From: Clostridia bacterium
GTDB lineage: Bacteria > Bacillota > Clostridia > Oscillospirales > CAG-272
Direction: 5' to 3'
NCBI GenBank assembly: GCA_017621695.1
Contig: JAGASP010000127.1
Location: 2,681 to 66,680, forward strand
DNA length: 64,000 nucleotides
In this document: positions 6,157-64,000 of the stretch, piece by piece
How positions within the stretch are numbered: position 1 is the stretch's first letter
Layout: each line of letters opens with the position of its first letter
Program-made: the position numbers and the translations under genes
The notes under the pieces: generated by a model
The model's input: only the letters and a program-made list of their open reading frames with translations
Told to the model about the DNA's origin: nothing
Databases searched by the model: none

Positions 6157-7140
6157 ATGGAAAACATCGAAAAGGTAAAGAATTTCAGCCAAGTCGTCTC
6201 TAACATCAAGACCGAGCTCCGCCGTGACGTCGTCGGTCAGGAAGACATCGTGGATAACGTCATCATCGCCATCATTGCAGGAGGTAACGTCCTGCTCGAG
6301 GGCGTACCCGGTGTCGGTAAGACCCGTCTTGTCCGTTCTCTCAGCCACGTTTTGAACCTCCCCTTCTCCCGTATTCAGTTCACTCCCGACCTGATGCCCT
6401 CCGACGTAACGGGTAGCAACGTCATCGTCCGTGACGAGAACGGTAACATGAAGAGCGAATTCCGCAAGGGCCCGATCTTTGCAAACCTTGTGCTCGCCGA
6501 TGAGATCAACCGTGCAACCCCTAAGACCCAGTCCGCAATGCTGGAGGTCATGCAGGAGCATAAGATCACCGTGGGTAATGAAACATACGCTCTTGCTGAG
6601 CCCTTCTTCGTGCTGGCTACCGAGAACCCCATCGAGCAGGACGGTACCTACCCTCTGCCCGAAGCACAGATGGACCGCTTCATCTTCAAGCTCATCATGA
6701 AATTCCCCGGCAACGACGAGCTGGCTGATATCGTTAAGATGACCCAGATCACCATGGCAGAGACTGCCGGAACTGTCGTTGACGGTGCTACCATTCTGGA
6801 GATGCGTGCCCTTGCTTCCTCTGTTCCCGTGATCGACGAGGTCTTGGATTACGCTGTCCGTCTGGTTTCCGGTACGCATCCCGAGCTGGACAAGACCTCC
6901 GATACCGCCAAGAAGTACATCAAATACGGTGCATCTCCCCGTGCTGCCCAGGCACTCATCACCTGTGCCAAGGTTCGCGCTCTCATCAACGGTAATTTCA
7001 ACGTCTCTTACGCAGATGTCGAAGCACTGGCATATCCCGTTCTTCGTCACAGAATCAAGGTCAGCTATGCCGCCATCAACGAGCATCTGTCTGTAGATGA
7101 CGTGATCGGTATGCTCATCAAGGAAACCAAGAAAAAGTAA
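6157..7140 (+). CDS. moxR: MoxR-family AAA+ ATPase
   Basis: VVGQEDIVDNVIIAIIAGGNVLLEGVPGVGKT (Walker A), LVLADEINRATPKTQSAMLEVMQE (Walker B/sensor), and the overall AAA_3/MoxR layout. ATG 6157 lies 10 nt after GAGGAAGGA. The in-frame upstream ATG 6136 (track start) has no SD, so either start is possible. Confidence 0.93.
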   Translation: MENIEKVKNFSQVVSNIKTELRRDVVGQEDIVDNVIIAIIAGGNVLLEGVPGVGKTRLVRSLSHVLNLPFSRIQFTPDLMPSDVTGSNVIVRDENGNMKSEFRKGPIFANLVLADEINRATPKTQSAMLEVMQEHKITVGNETYALAEPFFVLATENPIEQDGTYPLPEAQMDRFIFKLIMKFPGNDELADIVKMTQITMAETAGTVVDGATILEMRALASSVPVIDEVLDYAVRLVSGTHPELDKTSDTAKKYIKYGASPRAAQALITCAKVRALINGNFNVSYADVEALAYPVLRHRIKVSYAAINEHLSVDDVIGMLIKETKKK

Positions 7141-57059: not shown

Positions 57060-57189
57060 AAGATACCAAGATACACGCCGAGCAAGCTCGGCCGATACAA
57101 GATACACGCCGAGCAAGCTCGGCCGATACAAGATAACCTCCCCGTTTCCATCTCGTATCTTGTATCTCGTATCTTGTATCTCATATCTC
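57060..57189 (+). repeat. Composite intergenic repeat: 31-nt unit x2.2 with GC hairpins, followed by inverted heptamer repeats
   Basis: CAAGATACACGCCGAGCAAGCTCGGCCGATA occurs at 57067-57097 and 57098-57128, each with GCCGAG-CAAG-CTCGGC. The left arm repeats AAGATAC. TCGTATCTTGTATC x2 (57153-57180) plus TCATATCTC is its reverse complement. Confidence 0.85.
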
Positions 57190-57234: not shown

Positions 57235-58221
57235 ATGTCAAACCGTTACGCATCCGTCCTGCCCATCGGCGTAGGACTCTACGACAAAACCCCGGCGGCT
57301 GACCGCAAGGTTGGCATCGCCTACACCACCTGGAACACCGCTACTCATCCCCGTTGGGGGACCGGGACTTGGGATCTCCCTATGGATGGCCCCTACATCT
57401 CCGAGGATCCCGCCATCATCCGTAAGCACGGCATCCTGCTCCGTGACGCAGGCATCGACTTTGTCTTCGTTGACTGGACCAACAACACCTGCTACGATCC
57501 CGCGACCCAAAGAGACAAGCTGGAGACCTTCCGCATGATCGAGGAGGCTACCGATGTGCTGTTTGAGGAGTGGTCCCGTCTGGAGGGCGCGCCCAAGATC
57601 TGCATATTCGCAGGCCCAGGCCACAGTATGCCCGAGAATCTGGAGAACGGCAACCACCAGAAGAAGGTGGATCAGATCTGGCGAGACTACGCCTCCAAGT
57701 ACCCCGAGCTCTACTATCAGTACGACGGCAAGCCACTGCTCATGTGCTACGGTGCCACCCCCAACTTCTACGGCGCGGATCCCGTCTGGACCGACGACCG
57801 CTTCACGGTTCGCTGGGTCACGGGTTACGTAGGCCAGCAGGAGGGTCTGTATGATCCTGAGACCATGCGCTCCTACCACTTCTGGAGCTGGGAGGAGCGA
57901 GGCACCCAGACCTATACCGTCAAAGAGGGAAGGGTAGAGTGCATCTCGGTCACCGCCTCCAGTCGCGCTCAGGGCAAGGAAGGAACTCGTGGCTACATCC
58001 CTGCGAGAGGTCGACGGAACGGCGAGACCTTCCGTGAGCAGTTCGGTCGAGCCACCCAACTGGGCGCGGGTATGGTGCTTCTGATTTCCTGGAACGAGTG
58101 GACTACGGGCGAACAACTCTCGTTGGAGATTTCCAAGGATCTGGAGCCCTCCCAAACCTTGGGTACCTTCTACTACGACCTCATGAAGGAGCAGATCAAA
58201 CTGTATAAGACGCTTGAGTGA
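57235..58221 (+). CDS. Cytoplasmic stand-alone WNEW-type TIM-barrel-like protein, paralog of the C-terminal domain of the upstream lipoprotein
   Basis: Start moved to ATG 57235 (ACGGAGGA upstream; MSNRYASVLPIG). No signal peptide. It is collinear with 56110-57042 (VGIAYTTW, LLRDAGIDFVFVDWTNNTCYDPAT, KICIFAGPGHS, GKPLLMCYGATPN, DDRFTVRWVTGYVGQQ, ISWNEWTTGEQ), and roughly two-thirds of positions are identical by eye. Confidence 0.8.
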   Translation: MSNRYASVLPIGVGLYDKTPAADRKVGIAYTTWNTATHPRWGTGTWDLPMDGPYISEDPAIIRKHGILLRDAGIDFVFVDWTNNTCYDPATQRDKLETFRMIEEATDVLFEEWSRLEGAPKICIFAGPGHSMPENLENGNHQKKVDQIWRDYASKYPELYYQYDGKPLLMCYGATPNFYGADPVWTDDRFTVRWVTGYVGQQEGLYDPETMRSYHFWSWEERGTQTYTVKEGRVECISVTASSRAQGKEGTRGYIPARGRRNGETFREQFGRATQLGAGMVLLISWNEWTTGEQLSLEISKDLEPSQTLGTFYYDLMKEQIKLYKTLE

Positions 58222-58262
58222 TCCAACCGGGGGCGAAGGAGTTAAAAATAAGCTATTTTCGC

Positions 58263-58310
58263 AAAAAACAAAATTCCATAGTCGAAATTGTATCGACTAT
58301 GGAATTTTTT
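58263..58310. terminator. Bidirectional terminator hairpin
   Basis: AAAATTCCATAGTCGA (58270-58285), loop aattgta, TCGACTATGGAATTTT (58293-58308): a 16-bp stem with an A-run before and a T-run after. It lies between convergent genes. Confidence 0.8.
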
Positions 58311-58334
58311 GTGCTGTGCTTCCGAAATAGATGC

Positions 58335-58784
58335 CTATTGCTCAAGGATTCTTCTTACACATTCTATCAATTCATTTTCTTCCTTGATTTTTGACATAAA
58401 TAATACAGCGCACACAACGGAAATTAAGATAAATGCCAGTATATCTTGAACAAAAATAATTTCTAACAAGCCATTCAACAAACCGATTATCAATAAAGGG
58501 CAGTAATATGTATATCCTTTGACAATGCGTTTCCCGTTTTTCTCTTTTATTTTAATGTGCATCCAAGCTTTCGCTCTCTGCAAATCGTCTTGTCTGTTAC
58601 GTTCTCCAGTTTCGTAATAACCGGTAAAACCATTTTCATCGGGATATAGATGCAAACCTTTTCTAGGAGAGGTGTATTCCTTAAATATATTCCACGAAGA
58701 ATGCTTTTCCCATTCATAATAAGATGACATGCGGTGTTGGATCTCGTCACTAGTCAAATAAGTTTCAAATTCAAAAAAGCGCAT
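58335..58784 (-). CDS. Small membrane protein, function unknown
   Basis: 149-aa ORF in the AT-richer segment. C-terminal TM helices (YYCPLLIIGLLNGLLEIIFV, ILAFILISVVCAVLFM). It is preceded by regulatory module copy 1. Confidence 0.6.
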   Translation of the reverse strand: MRFFEFETYLTSDEIQHRMSSYYEWEKHSSWNIFKEYTSPRKGLHLYPDENGFTGYYETGERNRQDDLQRAKAWMHIKIKEKNGKRIVKGYTYYCPLLIIGLLNGLLEIIFVQDILAFILISVVCAVLFMSKIKEENELIECVRRILEQ

Positions 58785-58883
58785 TTGTTCACCGCCTTTT
58801 TTTATGCATGTGCGTATTTCTGTCCTCGGTTGGAGGATTATAGAGGAAGTAAATTTTACATCTGAGCAATGTTAATTTTACTT

Positions 58884-59023
58884 GATAATATGGTTTTAAG
58901 TCTATCATTTCCGCGCTCCTTTCGGGTGGTAATACAGATTGTACCGAAAGTTTGCGAGGAGTCCAGAGGTTTTGGAAAATTATTTGTTGAAATAATTATA
59001 TCACAAATTCCATGCTTTGTCAA
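58884..59023 (-). promoter_or_regulatory. Promoter-operator-leader module, copy 1
   Basis: Minus strand reads TTGACA (59023-59018), a 17-nt spacer, then a TG-extended TATAAT (59000-58995). An 18-bp palindrome ATTATTTGTTGAAATAAT (58979-58996) overlaps the -10/start region. About 95 nt of conserved leader (58884-58978) is shared with 61489-61580. Confidence 0.7.
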
Positions 59024-59190
59024 TGAAGCATTCGCTACGCGAATATGAAGCAGAAGCCTTGCGGCTTCTGTGAAGCGGCGGCGTTGCCGTCATGAAGCGA
59101 AGCGCACGCTAACCTCTCCGTGAGCCGAAGGCTCGCTTCACAGGACGAAGTCCTGCTTCATTTTTCATGCACCATCGGTGCGCTTCATTG
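59021..59190. repeat. Hairpin-ladder array 1 (three nested 9-bp helices built from ATGAAGC/GCTTCAT arms, with six side hairpins)
   Basis: Helices: 59021-59029/59182-59190, 59045-59053/59153-59161 and 59069-59077/59134-59142. Side hairpins: ATTCGC-tac-GCGAAT, AAGCC-ttgc-GGCTT, GGCGGC-gtt-GCCGTC, GAGCC-gaa-GGCTC, GGAC-gaa-GTCC and GCACC-atc-GGTGC. Confidence 0.8.
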
Positions 59191-59195
59191 CAACC

Positions 59196-59235
59196 AAAAA
59201 CGAAAAAGCAGTCCATTGGACTGCTTTCGTTTTTG
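59196..59235. terminator. Bidirectional terminator hairpin
   Basis: GCAGTCC (59208-59214), loop att, GGACTGC (59218-59224), extended by CGAAA/TTTCG, with an A-run before and a T-run after. It lies downstream (minus sense) of gene 59314-61410. Confidence 0.75.
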
Positions 59236-59313
59236 TGTTGCACTATCTAAATAGATGCCGAACTGAAAAGTCAATAAAATCAGGTGGCGAGTTCGGTCAA
59301 TTCAAAGCTTCGC

Positions 59314-61410
59314 CTAAACAGATTCTTTTTCCTTTTCTGTAAAGACCTCAACTATGTAGTTACAGTTTATTATCTTTTCAGCAAGCTGCCCCTTGGAATA
59401 ATAATAGTGGTTTGCCGCTTCATATCCGATTGCCGCGTTTTTGTTCATCAGCGCTAACATTCTTTTTGCGGTGAGCAATTCTTCCTTTGCGGCAAAGACG
59501 GCATCTGAATAGAACCCTTCGTCTCTGGCGCGAATAAATCTGATTTGATTCAAAGAAGATTTAAAAAGGCAATAGGTTGCTCTTGCCATAATAGCGGTCT
59601 CACTTTCATCTTCTTCATCCAGCATATCCAAGCCGATCTCCCATTTTTTACATAGCTTTGAAAATTGCTCCTCAAAGGTGTTAAGCGGATATATCGACCT
59701 CCAGCCTTTAAGATCATCATAGGCAAAGCAGGTCATAGATGTTTTGTATCCCGTCGGCTTTTCAAACAGAAGATTAGAGGGACCCGCATTTTGCGGCCCG
59801 AAATAGAGAACATCGATATGGAACGGAAACTCTCTGAATGCCTCAACGAATTGCTTTTCCGCTTCATATGGCGCAGGGCCTTTGGATTGATCACTACATT
59901 CTTCGTAAAAATATTTTGCCGCAGCGGCAATATTACGGCAGGGATATCCTCCAAGCGTCCAACTGAGCAAAAGATGCTGAACCCCCTCCTCTTGCAACGT
60001 TTTAATATGCTTCTCTATGGAGGGGCGTACAGGAATAGCCGGAACAGTTGATGCTTCCCACGTGGTGTTTATCTGCACCTTTGCGCCGACCTCCAAGCCG
60101 CGATCCTTTGCCAGCTTCCATTCGCGGCGCGCACGTTCTCCCGGTCCGACAATGCTCATAGAATAGTCCAGGACATTACCCTTAATTCCGCTTATATCAA
60201 ACGGAATATCCAATTCGCTCTGTGATAAAAGTATAATGTCTTTGGGAAGACGTCGTATGATATCTTCGTTGAACTCATCCCATCTCCAGCTCCACGCAAA
60301 CACCTTGATATCCCGGCTTACGCGGTACGCTCCATTTAAGATGCAATCGATTGTTTCGGCAACAACCTCGCCAACACCTCGGTTTTTGCATCTGGGACAG
60401 TTGCAGGGATTCCAAGCGAAACCCGAATGTGAGTAGCAATTTGTCAGATTTTCAGATCTTGTTATAGTAAAAAAGCCGCCGATCAAGGGCACAGCGCGGC
60501 ATATTGACTCCACAGCATCCGTAAGATAATCGCGCACTTGAGGCGTTGAGATGCAAAGGCAGGCGTCTTCACCCTGCACGTGACCGCGCAGTTCAGAGTG
60601 CTTTTCAAAGAAGGAAAGAGGCATTGAGCGTGGCTCGTTGAGATAAAGATAAAGCTTGATACCGTAGCGAGCAAGGCGCTCGGTCATCGCTATCATCTTT
60701 TCAATGCGCTTTTCATATCCTACTGAAACGCTAGGATCAAACGGAAAGGGGGTAAGCTGCGAGAGCACGCCCTGTGTCCAGATACCATTTATGCCAAGCG
60801 CCTGATACGCCTTTAGCTGCTCATCGGGCAAAAATTCTTCGCTATCGACGTCGAATGCGTGCTGATATAATCCGGAAAACGCATAGATCATTCGTGTGGA
60901 AAAGCGTTCCTTGCCGGTAAATTGCAGTTTTGGAACATCATATTCAAATGCAAACGGTTGCTTGCCGGAAAAATCGAGCGATTGCATCAGCTTTTGAATT
61001 TGGCGAGTCCTTATTCTTTCTTCTTCAGTAAGCTCACGCCACGAAATTCTTTCACAGTATGGCTTATCCGATAGCTTGACATCGAGAAAATCATCCTCAC
61101 GCATAATACGCGCAAGCGTCTGTTCATCCATATCCAGCAGCTCTAATAACTGCTCGTACGGCAAAATGTGCCACATTCTGCGAATGATCGTAATATAACC
61201 GCGTCGGAGCCACAAATCACCGGGATTGTAGTCCGGCAATCCCATCTCATCGGCGGCGCGTCTTACCGTGTTAACGTCCGTCCTCAAGAGGTTTGCTATT
61301 CTTTCTATCGGTACGTATTCGTACGCACGAAAAATAAATGCTTGGTGCTTTGTCGGAAAATGCAACAAATCCAGCGCATTATTTCCTACCGGCGGCAATG
61401 AATAAATCAT
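59314..61410 (-). CDS. 698-aa cytoplasmic protein, putative clan GH-A-like glycoside hydrolase
   Basis: SD GGAGGA. Central barrel-like region GINGIWTQGVLSQLTPFPFDP...YGIKLYLYLNEPRSMP (NEP-type motif) and FFTITRSENLTNCYSH...CNCPRC. No signal peptide. The family was not identified. Confidence 0.6.
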   Translation of the reverse strand: MIYSLPPVGNNALDLLHFPTKHQAFIFRAYEYVPIERIANLLRTDVNTVRRAADEMGLPDYNPGDLWLRRGYITIIRRMWHILPYEQLLELLDMDEQTLARIMREDDFLDVKLSDKPYCERISWRELTEEERIRTRQIQKLMQSLDFSGKQPFAFEYDVPKLQFTGKERFSTRMIYAFSGLYQHAFDVDSEEFLPDEQLKAYQALGINGIWTQGVLSQLTPFPFDPSVSVGYEKRIEKMIAMTERLARYGIKLYLYLNEPRSMPLSFFEKHSELRGHVQGEDACLCISTPQVRDYLTDAVESICRAVPLIGGFFTITRSENLTNCYSHSGFAWNPCNCPRCKNRGVGEVVAETIDCILNGAYRVSRDIKVFAWSWRWDEFNEDIIRRLPKDIILLSQSELDIPFDISGIKGNVLDYSMSIVGPGERARREWKLAKDRGLEVGAKVQINTTWEASTVPAIPVRPSIEKHIKTLQEEGVQHLLLSWTLGGYPCRNIAAAAKYFYEECSDQSKGPAPYEAEKQFVEAFREFPFHIDVLYFGPQNAGPSNLLFEKPTGYKTSMTCFAYDDLKGWRSIYPLNTFEEQFSKLCKKWEIGLDMLDEEDESETAIMARATYCLFKSSLNQIRFIRARDEGFYSDAVFAAKEELLTAKRMLALMNKNAAIGYEAANHYYYSKGQLAEKIINCNYIVEVFTEKEKESV

Positions 61411-61488
61411 AATATTCCTCCATTTTTACAAAGTCAATGCTTGGTTATGGTTTTATCACAATACAAACAAAAAAACAAAAACGAATTA

Positions 61489-61625
61489 GATAATATGGCT
61501 TCAGGTCTATCATTTTCACTCTCCTTTCGGGTGGTAATACCATTATACCGAAAGACTCGGGAAAGTCCAGGGGTTTTATGATTATTTGTTGAAATAATTA
61601 TATCATACTTTCGACTAAAAATCAA
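61489..61625 (-). promoter_or_regulatory. Promoter-operator-leader module, copy 2
   Basis: Minus strand reads TTGATT (61625-61620), a 17-nt spacer, then a TG-extended TATAAT (61602-61597). The same palindrome ATTATTTGTTGAAATAAT lies at 61581-61598. The conserved leader at 61489-61580 is about 80% identical to copy 1 by eye. Confidence 0.7.
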
Positions 61626-61634
61626 CTATAATTT

Positions 61635-61826
61635 CAGCGCACTGAGCGAACGGCTCAATTCCGTTTGCGCGAAGCGCAACATCGTTGGGCGTAGCCCGCA
61701 TCATTTGCCGAAGGCAACTTCATTTGAGGCAATGCCTCAACATCGTTCATTTGTGCCACGAGCGGCAATGATGTTCTCGCTTTGCTCGAAATGATGTTGC
61801 GTGCGTTGCACGCAACTGATGTTGTA
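61635..61826. repeat. Hairpin-ladder array 2 (nested helices built from AACATCRTT/AAYGATGTT arms, with side hairpins)
   Basis: Left arms at 61678-61686, 61698-61706 and 61739-61747. Right arms at 61767-61775, 61790-61798 and 61814-61823. Side hairpins: AACGG-ctcaatt-CCGTT, TTGCGC-gaa-GCGCAA, GGGC-gta-GCCC, TTGCC-gaa-GGCAA, TTGAGGC-aat-GCCTCAA and GTTGCGTGC-gtt-GCACGCAAC. Confidence 0.8.
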
Positions 61827-61912
61827 GTTATTATATCACACCATTTCCGTCATGTCAAGGTGCTTCCATTTTTGAAGAGACCGAATAATTTCAAAAATAT
61901 TTGCAAAAACTA

Positions 61913-61941
61913 TTGACAAAAGCCAAATGATATGGTATAAT
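61913..61941 (+). promoter_or_regulatory. Consensus sigma-A promoter of the tRNA pair
   Basis: TTGACA (61913-61918), a 17-nt spacer, then TATAAT (61936-61941). Confidence 0.75.
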
Positions 61942-61988
61942 AACAAAGTCATCGGGACAGTAAAGCCTCGGTAACAGTTTGAAGTTCT

Positions 61989-62077
61989 GCCGGTGTGGCG
62001 GAATTGGCAGACGCCCGGGACTTAAAATCCCGTGATACGAGAGTATCGTACCGGTTCGAGACCGGTCACCGGCACCA
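61989..62077 (+). tRNA. tRNA-Leu (anticodon UAA), class II with long variable arm, CCA encoded
   Basis: Acceptor GCCGGTG/CACCGGC. Anticodon stem-loop CGGGA-CTTAAAA-TCCCG. Variable arm GATAC-gaga-GTATC. T-arm ACCGG-TTCGAGA-CCGGT. 3' ACCA. Confidence 0.92.
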
Positions 62078-62094
62078 CACCAAATTTCATATAT

Positions 62095-62171
<77 letters not shown>

Positions 62172-62200
62172 TATTGTGCATCCTTAATGGATGCCACCCC

Positions 62201-62237
62201 AAAAAACCCAGATGTCGTAAGGCTTCTGGGCTTTTTT
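62201..62237 (+). terminator. Terminator after the tRNA pair (A-run/T-run on both sides)
   Basis: CCCAGA (62207-62212) pairs with TCTGGG (62225-62230), followed by CTTTTTT. Confidence 0.7.
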
Positions 62238-62326
62238 GTACCCATTTTTCATAGTGCGATTTTAATAGATGCCAAACGCCAAAAACGCCGTGTGGATGGG
62301 ATTTGAACTTAAATAATCCACTTTTT

Positions 62327-62371
62327 AGGGGAGATTTTGCGATTTTTCAGTCGCACAATCTCCCCTTTTTT
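62327..62371 (+). terminator. Strong orphan Rho-independent terminator
   Basis: AGGGGAGATTTTGCGA (62327-62342) pairs with TCGCACAATCTCCCCT (62351-62366) with one mismatch, followed by TTTTTT. No obvious upstream plus-strand gene. Confidence 0.65.
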
Positions 62372-62556
62372 CGTTTATTTCAAAAAAATATTTGTAAACT
62401 ATTTGTGTCTAAAACGAGGATTGTAGAAAATATTACTGCAGTCCTCTTTTTTATTTTCAAGAAAGGAGATCAAAAATGAAGCATGTTATTCATTGCCGTA
62501 GCCCTACTCATTAAGAAGTACAGAAAAAGAAAAAACAAAAATCAGAAAGGAGATAC

Positions 62557-62835
62557 ATGAGCATCCAAGAAGTAAATCGTATCAAAAATCACTACCCTCC
62601 CGGAACTCGTATCGAGCTCATAGCGATGAACGATCCCTACGATCCCGTGCCATCAGGCACAAGAGGAACAGTCGAGCATGTTGACGATGACGGTCAACTG
62701 CATATGAAATGGGATAACGGTCGTACACTTGCCGCCGTTCCCGGCGTGGATAGTTTCCGCAAACTCACTCCCGAAGAAATCCAAGCTGAAAGTCATACGG
62801 AAGATATATCCGAAGACAATCCTATCAGCATGTAA
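62557..62835 (+). CDS. DUF4314-like small protein
   Basis: SD GAAAGGAGA. YPPGTRIELIAMNDPYDPVPSGTRGTVEHVDDDGQLHMKWDNGRTLAAVPGVDSFRKL matches my recollection of the DUF4314 pattern common in Firmicutes mobile elements. Confidence 0.55.
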   Translation: MSIQEVNRIKNHYPPGTRIELIAMNDPYDPVPSGTRGTVEHVDDDGQLHMKWDNGRTLAAVPGVDSFRKLTPEEIQAESHTEDISEDNPISM

Positions 62836-62868
62836 GGGGGTGGGATCATAACAATTAAATATATTGAC

Positions 62869-63951
62869 ATGTTCGCCGGCATTGGTGGATTCCGCACAGG
62901 ACTCGCTAATGTCGGCGATTTTTTTGTCCCCGTAGGTTTCTGTGAAATAGATAAATACGCACAGAGAGCCTACCGCGCATTATACAGAACAGGAGGTGAA
63001 TATTTCTGCGATGATGCCACACGAATTAACACCGATGAACTACCCGACATTGATCTCATTTGCGCAGGATTTCCTTGTCAGCCTTTCTCAGTCAGCGGAC
63101 GGCGACTTGGCTTTGCCGACACCCGAGGAACTCTCTTTCATGAAATCACAAGGGTGGCTGAAGCCAAACGGCCTAAGTATCTTCTCCTTGAAAACGTGCC
63201 GGGGATTCTCAATCACTCCCACGGGCAAACTTGGAGAACTATCCTCTATGAGATTTCAAAACTCGGGTATTGTGTTCAATATGGTGTGCTTAACTCAGCG
63301 TATTTCGGAGTCCCACAGCAACGAAAGCGCGTGTACGCTTTCGGATATCTTGATCCAAGACTGTCCGGAAAAATACTTCCTATCGGAGAAGGCAGTGCGG
63401 AAACTCTTAAACAACTCGTCGCAGGCAGCCAAGGTTGCCGAATCTACGGAATTGACGGAGTCAGCACCTGCATCACATCCCAAGGAGGTGGCTGGGGAGC
63501 CAAAACAGGACTCTACTTTGTTGACATGAATCCAAACCCCATGGTAACGCATCACGCAAGATGTATCACCGCAAGACAGGACTCGGGCATCAGCAAACAC
63601 AGAGGCGAGCACTCGGGCGTTATCATAACTGATGCAAGAGCTGTTATTACTCCCTTCAGGGAAAACATAAGGCAGCAAGGAAGGCGAATTAAGGAGCCTA
63701 ACGAGCCGATGTTCACTCTCACGGCACAAGACCGCATGGGAGTCGAGTACAACGGCTTGGTGCGCCGTTTAACGCCTCTTGAATGCTTCCGCTTACAAGG
63801 ATATTCTGACGAGCAATTCAATACGCTCGTAGATATCGGAATTCCCGAAAGTCAGTTATACAAGATGGCTGGTAATTCTGTAACCACCAATGTTGTAACG
63901 GCAATCGGCAACAGACTAATTCAAGTATTAAAGGAGATCGAAAATGGTTAA
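62869..63951 (+). CDS. dcm: DNA (cytosine-5)-methyltransferase
   Basis: Motif I (D)MFAGIGGF, motif IV GFPCQPFS, motif VI LLENVPG, motif VIII QQRKRVY and motif X GNSV. The open frame extends upstream to 62836 with no canonical start (see findings). Confidence 0.9.
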   Translation: MFAGIGGFRTGLANVGDFFVPVGFCEIDKYAQRAYRALYRTGGEYFCDDATRINTDELPDIDLICAGFPCQPFSVSGRRLGFADTRGTLFHEITRVAEAKRPKYLLLENVPGILNHSHGQTWRTILYEISKLGYCVQYGVLNSAYFGVPQQRKRVYAFGYLDPRLSGKILPIGEGSAETLKQLVAGSQGCRIYGIDGVSTCITSQGGGWGAKTGLYFVDMNPNPMVTHHARCITARQDSGISKHRGEHSGVIITDARAVITPFRENIRQQGRRIKEPNEPMFTLTAQDRMGVEYNGLVRRLTPLECFRLQGYSDEQFNTLVDIGIPESQLYKMAGNSVTTNVVTAIGNRLIQVLKEIENG

Positions 63952-64000
63952 AAAAATCACTACCACTGAACTCAGGCAAGGCAAGATCAACGGCGGTATT
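63944..64000 (+). CDS. Start of a further ORF (partial, 19 codons)
   Basis: ATG 63944 lies 7 nt after AAGGAG and overlaps the dcm stop (ATGGTTAA). It reads MVKKITTTELRQGKINGGI... and runs off the window. Confidence 0.4.
   Translation, partial: MVKKITTTELRQGKINGGI

Follow-up and report, generated by a model that had tools for sequence, protein, structure and literature searches.

Introduction

Gut-1 is a probable non-coding RNA with 43 members and no assigned function, which its discovery paper described as "found only in human gut" sequence (Weinberg et al. 2010, Genome Biol 11:R31; PMC2864571). The consensus of its Rfam family (RF01706) is CAaUGAAAU-hairpin-GUGAAAU-hairpin-GUGAAAU-hairpin-gUGAAAU, and our literature search found no paper besides the 2010 one that mentions the motif. 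Here we analyse a 64,000-nucleotide stretch of DNA from a Clostridia bacterium (hereafter the window; GenBank assembly GCA_017621695.1, contig JAGASP010000127.1, a scaffold from a metagenome), in which a preliminary description had noted two intergenic hairpin arrays (array 1, 59021-59190; array 2, 61635-61826) as an unrecognised element. That label has to be given up: both arrays are very probably divergent, double copies of a structure-selected Gut-1-type element of gut Clostridia and their phages, whose inverted half is already present in the flanks of the published seed sequences. We assign a probability of roughly 55% to the complete reading developed below, namely that the arrays are of the Gut-1 type and that they act in RNA as boundary elements between transcription units.

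A second point of comparison is provided by the repetitive extragenic palindromic (REP) sequences of Proteobacteria and their composite forms, bacterial interspersed mosaic elements (BIMEs) and REPINs. These are extragenic palindromes with a short conserved flanking motif, which lie past gene 3' ends in clusters of alternating orientation that are able to form larger hairpins, and for which roles in mRNA stabilisation, transcription attenuation and gyrase binding have been proposed. The arrays share with them the extragenic palindromic units, the short conserved flank motif and the inverted clusters past 3' ends. A REP stem, however, is one sequence copied genome-wide and tied to a REP-associated tyrosine transposase (RAYT), whereas here the hairpins differ and it is the arm that is constant within an array. 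The side hairpins all differ within and between arrays, with no further copies in the 64 kb, and no Y1 transposase (RAYT) occurs among the 10 window open reading frames (ORFs) scanned against Pfam, a minority of its ORFs.

Results

Anatomy and folding of the arrays

Array 1 is a dyad-symmetric ladder. Direct reading of 58600-62400 revealed three nested, perfect 9-bp helices with the core ATGAAGC/GCTTCAT: an outer helix (caatgaagc 59021-29 / gcttcattg 59182-90), a middle helix (atgaagcag 59045-53 / ctgcttcat 59153-61) and an inner helix (tgtgaagcg 59069-77 / cgcttcaca 59134-42). The junctions are occupied by six GC-rich hairpins unrelated to one another in sequence, three on the left (59030-44, loop tac; 59051-70, ttgc; 59077-91, gtt, with one G.T pair) and three on the right (59122-34, gaa; 59141-55, gaa; 59169-81, atc), such that arm-then-hairpin units face the centre on both strands, an arrangement that we term outside-in. 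This anatomy agrees with the preliminary description and was recovered as the minimum free energy (MFE) fold on both strands (ViennaRNA), with -80.0 kcal/mol on the plus strand (z = -5.5) and -79.8 kcal/mol on the minus strand (z = -4.6); none of 200 shuffled sequences matched the native fold, and folding with DNA parameters gave z = -6.9. The RTGAAGC arms lie at 59023, 59045, 59070 and 59092 on the plus strand and at 59135-41, 59155-61 and 59182-88 on the minus strand, which places seven occurrences of this motif within 59023-59188 (166 bp), compared with 33 in the full 64 kb on both strands. The fourth left arm, at 59092, has no pairing partner and was absent from the earlier description.

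Array 2 has the same architecture built on another arm, AACATCRTT / AAYGATGTT, and is inside-out, with hairpin-then-arm units followed by arm-then-hairpin units. Its arms AACATCGTT / GCATCATTT / AACATCGTT pair with AATGATGTT / AAATGATGTT / AACTGATGTT, with the one G.T pair previously noted and also one bulge; the six clean side hairpins first described proved to be five perfect ones (61665-79, 61687-97, 61705-17, 61724-40 and 61796-816, plus strand) and two imperfect ones. The RNA fold has z = -4.6 on the plus strand and -2.9 on the minus strand, and the DNA-parameter fold z = -3.7. Both arrays thus fold far better than shuffled sequences as RNA and as DNA, and both alternate constant arms with variable GC-rich hairpins, as had been proposed, with a period of 22-25 nt.

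A third array, also absent from the earlier description, lies at 57060-57189 between an 800-aa gene and a GH99-like gene. Direct AAGATAC arms with two identical hairpins gccgagcaagctcggc (a 31-nt unit repeated 2.4 times) are followed by four to five contiguous inverted arms, GTATCTT, without hairpins. Array 3 is arranged inside-out, like array 2, and its RNA fold has z = -8.2. It carries an exact 31-nt unit duplication and is the only one of the three that Tandem Repeats Finder reported; the program was silent on arrays 1 and 2, which sets aside a simple tandem repeat for these.

We scanned the 64 kb for any arm that occurs at least twice in direct and then at least twice in inverted orientation, together with at least three GC-rich hairpins, and obtained arrays 1 and 2 only. 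In 33 loci of relatives (~3-10 kb each), the same scan returned, besides the arrays of close relatives, weak matches in three loci (L028, L029 and L031), of which two were inspected and neither is an array. A further candidate from a hairpin-density scan, at 43.9-44.2 kb of the window, turned out to be coding sequence plus a terminator. Arrays 1 and 2 are real and not a product of chance.

Kinship to Gut-1 RNA

An Rfam scan at gathering thresholds returned two tRNAs and nothing else. In a permissive scan, the half of array 1 that is proximal to the terminator in gene orientation (59110-59190, minus strand) matched the full RF01706 model (positions 1-77) with 30.4 bits (gathering score, 50 bits), at E-values of 2.5e-4 in a search of 261 nt and 5e-3 in a search of 5.4 kb. 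Bona fide Gut-1 copies in gut phage and viral contigs, which served as positive controls, scored 77.7 (L071), 77.5 (L098), 59 (L138) and 58 bits (L212), and opposite-strand halves scored 41.6 bits in L098, 39 and 35 bits in L179 and 26 bits in the right half of L006. Arrays of the same grammar therefore score along a continuum, 78 to 26 bits, indicating that canonical Gut-1 grades into the arrays of the window.

The likeness extends to several properties of the family. Array 1 is a tandem series of short, GC-rich hairpins of variable sequence, at least three as in Gut-1, joined by a constant 7-nt linker that starts with RUGA: AUGAAGC, AUGAAGC, GUGAAGC and AUGAAGC, corresponding to the RUGAWAU form of the family, with unrelated hairpins between them. 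Its loops, read from linker to hairpin, are GAT, TTC and TTC in this half and TAC, TTGC and GTT in the other half and strand, showing the pyrimidine-rich, CUUCG-like and C-G-closed character of Gut-1 loops. The stems covary among the window and four related loci (L018, L005, L006 and L041), a small set of sequences; the hosts are gut Clostridia, and the site directly follows a terminator, in many cases one that ends a tRNA. The arrays differ from the published family in their linkers, which are AUGAAGC and AACAUCRUU/AAYGAUGUU rather than GUGAAAU/GUGAUAU. The array 2 linker AAYGAUGUU keeps a UGAUG/GAUG core and is more distant from Gut-1 in sequence, and array 2 further differs in being inside-out.

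To compare overall architecture, we examined the seed alignment together with its flanks (11 rows, at least 6 distinct loci). At least five loci carry a terminator, then 3-4 GUGAUAU/GUGAAAU-plus-hairpin units, then 3-5 AUAUCAC/AUUUCAC-plus-hairpin units; one of them follows a tRNA, and a promoter-like site is legible after two. Four of the remaining five rows are copies of a single locus with distant, contiguous inverted arms, and the fifth is fragmentary. The published Gut-1 motif is thus one half of a head-to-head pair, or larger self-complementary ladder. Whereas the published model consists of one half with unpaired linkers, the window and the seed flanks add an inverted half and a nested ladder of four-way junctions. 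The kinship brings no mechanism with it, since the family has no assigned function.

A grammar shared by cellular and phage arrays

Searches for the same grammar also recovered arrays in relatives and in viral contigs. Pattern scans of viral contigs for a triple arm gave 240 matches, mostly unrelated repeats, of which a hairpin filter flagged six loci; the five inspected are true arrays, and the sixth (L074) has near-identical spacers. The unit is a 7-9 nt A/T-rich arm beginning with RTGA(W), followed by a GC-rich hairpin of 4-8 bp and arbitrary sequence. Three to five units make up a half-array, and two half-arrays carrying the same arm in opposed orientation can zip arm-to-arm into a four-way-junction ladder. 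The arm motif is always common to both halves of an array (at least six motif classes), and an RTGA core is present in 6 of 7 arm classes; a random 7-9-mer of the window contains this core with p ~0.07-0.11, and because GTGA patterns were used to find two of the classes (the first two), the independent count is 4/5.

The loops of the units are pyrimidine-rich, TNC or TNNC (GNA or GNNA on the complement), and closed 5'C-G3'. Among 48 unambiguous triloops pooled from 15 array regions and read from arm to hairpin, 26 are C(TNC)G (TTC 13, TGC 10, TAC 3) and none is C(GNA)G, and the closing pair is C-G in 47 of the 48. On the complement, C(GNA)G or C(GNNA)G is found in all units. The outside-in arrangement of array 1 recurs in most seeds and the inside-out one of array 2 in array 3, and the polarity of the unit is kept in both.

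In phages the element also occurs between cistrons of structural operons (L138 and L212). The L212 operon has a single-orientation array, and in the L138 operon the halves are 150-300 nt apart: the first follows a stop codon, and its partner closely precedes the next ribosome-binding site (RBS). In L138 (~1590-1615 and 2700-2725), the spacers beside the Gut-1 half-arrays share a repeated hairpin, ggtacacgctaaagcgtgattgg.

Neither of two properties assigned the arrays to a strand. Stems are nearly all Watson-Crick (at most one G.T in 458 pairs), leaving essentially no G.U pairs to distinguish the strands. Sense and antisense MFE differ by 0-10 kcal/mol, with the antisense more stable in most arrays, the reverse in L018 and equality in array 1, and these differences are too inconsistent to be used. 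The units do not resemble weak intrinsic terminators either, as their tails are not T-rich (a mean of 2.7 T per 8 nt, versus 2.4 when the units are read the other way).

The genomic position is reproducible. The order terminator, array, promoter is found in the window, in L005, L006, L041 and L098, and in seeds, and tRNA operons lie beside the arrays in the window, in L005, L041, L071 and L098, and in one seed.

Conservation among relatives

The relatives comprise 33 loci with homologues of the 698-aa protein encoded between arrays 1 and 2, from metagenome-assembled genomes (MAGs) of Oscillospiraceae/Eubacteriales. The architecture is not unique to the window and is conserved in L005, L006, L018 and L041. 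In L005 (94% amino acid identity) the orthologous gene is flanked on either side by ATGAAGC arrays; a single ATGAAGC array is present in L018; the two arrays of L006 (87%) use another arm, GTGATG/CATCAC; and the metagenome contig L041 shows, in order, tRNA-Met, a terminator, a GTGATG array, a promoter, a PF05635 gene and the promoter module described below. The terminator sequence that abuts array 1 also precedes the arrays of L005, L006 and L041, where it follows tRNA-Met, and the arms of the arrays behind it differ. Upstream of the 698-aa gene, the orthologous position holds three arm motifs (window, L005 and L006) between conserved flanks, indicating that arrays are exchanged or rebuilt as units. 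A scan of viral sequences with this terminator gave chance matches in coding DNA only, and a metagenome scan with the module sequence gave four contigs, one of them (L041) with an array.

Homologous arrays differ chiefly in their loops, in the gain or loss of whole units and in compensatory stem changes. The latter include ggac/gtcc to gaac/gttc between the window and L018, gccc/gggc to gcgc/gcgc between L006 and L041, and tgtgc/gcaca to tatgc/gcata, and in one case a hairpin has been swapped for another in place; the samples behind these comparisons are small (4 and 3 sequences from the window, L018, L005, L006 and L041). In the two copies of L005 the promoter spacer and the loops have diverged and the arms and stems have been kept, which argues for purifying selection on pairing and on arm sequence. 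The arrays are conserved and maintained by selection on base pairing.

Three relatives carry further features near these positions. In L005 (3316-3595), ~240 nt are inserted between tRNA-Met and the terminator plus array, and the insert ends in a duplicate tRNA 3' end (gtcccacccccgcaacca) resembling an attachment-site scar. In L007, the place corresponding to array 1, past the 698-aa homologue (~6215-6325), is occupied by a long inverted repeat without hairpins that lies between terminator and promoter; its pyrimidine-rich CTCTTCAC/CTTTTCAC repeats face AGAGAAGAG..., and its arms (GTGAAGAG on the complement) hold the RTGA core. In L006 (7230-7398, minus strand), a match to RF02819 (Vibrio RNA AS7) that is strong although below threshold (71 bits, cut-off 90; E = 2e-11) occurs in a Clostridia MAG.

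Layout of the locus

The genes and "twin" promoters of the locus are on the minus strand. In gene orientation, the first half consists of a promoter (61858 to 61830), array 2, a second promoter (61625 to 61597), a short module and the 698-aa gene (59314-61410), and the second half of a terminator (59204-59228), array 1, a promoter (59023 to 58995), the module again and a 149-aa gene. The terminator, a bidirectional intrinsic one belonging to the 698-aa gene, abuts array 1. The promoter at array 1 is a perfect sigma-70-type site (TTGACA-17-TATAAT with TG), predicted to drive the small-ORF module and the 149-aa gene, and its -35 box overlaps the outer arm of the array, as originally reported, by 3 nt. 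The promoter reading into array 2 is likewise perfect (12/12, with TG), and its predicted start, ~61823, coincides with the first arm, so that array 2 would form the 5' end of the transcript. Just downstream of array 2, the second promoter (TTGATT-17-TATAAT) is predicted to drive the module and the 698-aa gene. On the plus strand, no promoter of at least 9/12 reads into array 1.

Each array does lie beside the same repeated promoter module, as noted before. Copy 1 (58884-59010, minus strand) consists of the last codons of a PF05635 gene that has been lost, a promoter-like site (TGGACT-16-TACAAT), an RBS (GGAG) and a small ORF of 39 aa (MIDLKPYYQVKL...); copy 2 (61489-61612, minus strand) is 88-95% identical, with a small ORF of 22 aa. 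Across contigs the module is ~125 bp long and its short ORF (MIDLKPYY...) has 20-79 aa, the longest (79 aa) being in L040. In the metagenome contigs L038-L041, the module follows an intact PF05635 gene for a "23S rRNA intervening sequence protein" (four-helix bundle), and the window module regions (58780-59010 and 61385-61612, minus strand) begin with the final codons, aacaaataa, of such a gene. The copies in the window look like remnants of a cassette of a four-helix-bundle gene plus small ORF. Of the earlier designation "regulatory module", what holds is a repeated fragment with a promoter-like site; a riboswitch or structured leader RNA is set aside, as the fragment has no Rfam match and contains an RBS and a short ORF.

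Beyond array 2, a tRNA pair (61989-62074 and 62095-62168, plus strand) has its own perfect promoter (61913-61941), divergent from the one reading into the array. The two promoter regions (61818-61858 and 61913-61953), both 12/12 and TG-extended, face away from each other and make up an imperfect inverted repeat of 41 nt; the "twin promoter" -10 segment occurs for the third time in the -10 region at 61820-61840. Compared with L005, the tRNAs of the window are inverted relative to the 698-aa gene. In the window, tRNA-Met is followed (62169-64000) by genes for DUF4314 and a C5 cytosine methylase, as is usual for mobile elements that have integrated.

The motif AAATAGATGCC (GGCATCTAWWT on the gene strand) occurs just past the stop codons of the 149-aa and 698-aa genes (58325-58335 and 59249-59259); the window holds three matches versus 0.13 expected, and the motif recurs past homologous genes and near tRNAs in L005, L006, L007, L010 and L018. 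The G+C content of 58000-62500 is 36-48%, versus 54-60% in 55.5-58 kb, consistent with a separately acquired or fast-evolving segment beside the tRNAs. In a Pfam scan of the array-flanking genes, the 698-aa and 149-aa proteins had no match and a 353-aa ORF had a weak GH99 match only.

Comparison with other hairpin and repeat elements

The preliminary description had held that the arrays are not CRISPR (clustered regularly interspaced short palindromic repeats), an ordinary terminator or a simple tandem repeat, and repeat length, hairpin tails and Tandem Repeats Finder, respectively, bear this out. The arrays resemble bidirectional terminators in having dyad-symmetric, GC-rich stems with stable loops, located between transcription units and folding equally on both strands; they differ in that the side hairpins have no U-tracts and the element is ~170-190 nt long with many branches, and the role of terminator falls to a separate hairpin (59204-59228). 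With CRISPR they share constant short repeats alternating with variable segments, as well as units gained and lost between relatives. The repeats, however, are 7-9 nt rather than 23-47 nt, half of them are inverted, and the "spacers" are self-complementary hairpins of 11-20 nt. No Cas family occurs among the 10 Pfam-scanned ORFs and no cas gene is adjacent; an exhaustive search of the window for such genes was not made.

Other systems were set aside on general features, without dedicated tests. The units are too short for integron attC sites; for a shufflon or invertible promoter the segments are too short and the promoter lies outside; the genes examined beside the arrays include no reverse transcriptase, as a retron or diversity-generating retroelement would have; and miniature Tn7- or Mu-like ends are not suggested by arms of only 7 nt without target duplication. 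Resemblances to C/D boxes, k-turns and CRP or Rex half-sites are coincidences of sequence only.

Discussion

Our results establish the arrays as structure-selected, dyad-symmetric intergenic elements at the boundaries of transcription units. For their role, we favour a model that starts from their position: upstream lies a terminator or the end of a gene, in many cases of a tRNA operon, and a strong promoter or the next cistron follows directly. RNA crossing the gap, whether from terminator read-through, from the 61858 promoter or as part of a polycistronic phage transcript, would fold into a very stable branched structure, and this fold would isolate the downstream unit by providing a processing site, a stability structure or a barrier that keeps read-through from affecting the promoter downstream. 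We favour RNA because the single-orientation arrays and far-apart halves of the phage operons can act or pair only as RNA (or single-stranded DNA), because the predicted start of a perfect promoter falls at the beginning of array 2, and because the dyad symmetry would let the element serve transcription from either side. Taken by itself, the mechanism, a folded single strand that marks the boundary and acts as RNA, is a tentative proposal, possible rather than probable.

Several observations weigh against this reading. Array 1 falls below the RF01706 gathering score (30.4 versus 50 bits), and array 2 has no match to the model at E<=10. With an efficient-looking terminator before it and a promoter after it, array 1 may be hardly transcribed, and the lack of U-richness in the hairpin tails means that the units are not weak intrinsic terminators. 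Stems that are Watson-Crick almost throughout, and MFE values without a consistent bias between sense and antisense, fit a DNA-level or two-strand constraint equally, and the RTGA core with its fixed polarity hints at a trans-acting factor outside the model.

The alternative that survives best operates in DNA. When single-stranded or negatively supercoiled, the array would extrude into a hairpin ladder or branched cruciform. Placed between a strong promoter and a unit with heavy transcription, often a tRNA operon, it would insulate, buffer DNA topology or offer a binding platform to junction-binding proteins such as HU. For the cellular arrays this reading is nearly as good as that in RNA. They lie in the spacer between terminator and -35 box, where little RNA is expected, their dyad symmetry and essentially Watson-Crick-only stems let both strands fold equally, and array 1 folds well with DNA parameters (z = -6.9). 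Moreover, the units of one strand all carry C(GNA)G or C(GNNA)G, the consensus of an unusually stable DNA mini-hairpin that needs a C-G closing pair (PMC3201870, PMC13037366). Stems of 4-8 bp are, however, very short for extrusion from duplex DNA, and no cruciform is possible for single-orientation arrays or for halves 150-300 nt apart (L212 and L138). Array 2 is probably transcribed, starting at the predicted start of its perfect promoter, and GNRA and GNA loops are favourable in RNA as well. On balance, we consider a DNA-level role rather unlikely, yet a close rival of the role in RNA.

Less likely again is an array of recognition sites, in which a protein would bind or cut each RTGAW arm together with the adjacent hairpin of any sequence, and the inverted half would pair with these sites or mask them. 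Enzymes that read a motif beside a hairpin include the HUH/RAYT enzymes acting on REPs, relaxases at the origin of transfer (oriT), and RNA-binding or RNase proteins. Recognition by a factor would account for the RTGA core shared by otherwise different arms (6/7 classes, and 4/5 of those not chosen by a GTGA pattern), for the strict arm-to-loop polarity in outside-in and inside-out arrangements alike, and for the resemblance to REP doublets and BIMEs, which are extragenic, past 3' ends and in inverted pairs. Yet three different arms occur within one 5-kb stretch of one genome, and no candidate protein is found among the array-adjacent genes (the 698-aa and 149-aa proteins without Pfam match, and the 353-aa weak GH99 match), which together argue against a simple sequence-specific binder. 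The hairpins all differ, leaving no copy-and-paste signature of a mobilised repeat, and no target-site duplication flanks the arrays.

The analysis of the arrays turned up nothing in favour of the replication or recombination structure that had also been considered. That the arrays are a mutational by-product, palindrome-rich junk from slipped-strand duplication of arm-plus-hairpin units in a recombination-prone, tRNA-adjacent region, would fit the recent exact 31-nt duplication in array 3, the variation of unit content between close relatives, with three arm motifs at one orthologous position (window, L005 and L006), and the mosaic of gene fragments in the region, but is very improbable given that arms and stems are kept between anciently diverged copies whose loops and promoter spacer have drifted, that several stem changes are compensatory, and that the same grammar and polarity recur in unrelated phage contigs and in a 43-member Rfam family.

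The kinship to Gut-1 bears on the family itself. Since 2010 Gut-1 has stood in Rfam as an orphan, with a three-hairpin model and no named host, and this locus and its relatives link it to identifiable MAGs of Oscillospiraceae/Eubacteriales and to gut phage contigs. To the published description they add the half-ladder nature of the motif, the varied arms around an RTGA core, the strict polarity and the reproducible position between a terminator or tRNA and a promoter. With this grammar the whole family could be collected from genomes, and the hypotheses of an RNA boundary, a DNA cruciform and a factor-binding array are testable.

We think it rather unlikely that the arrays represent a widespread, half-described class of boundary elements with dyad symmetry, common to gut Clostridia and their phages, in the form of four-way-junction stacks that are degenerate in register and whose conserved RTGA-plus-hairpin unit is read by a junction- or hairpin-binding factor or extruded as DNA and insulates strong promoters from upstream tRNA or mRNA transcription; if this were so, the published assignment of Gut-1 as a non-coding RNA, and its strand, would be incomplete or wrong. 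Should the elements not be insulators, they would still make up a clearly defined, if ordinary, family of intergenic repeats with structure. If they prove to be general insulators between transcription units, they would constitute a new type of bacterial genome punctuation.

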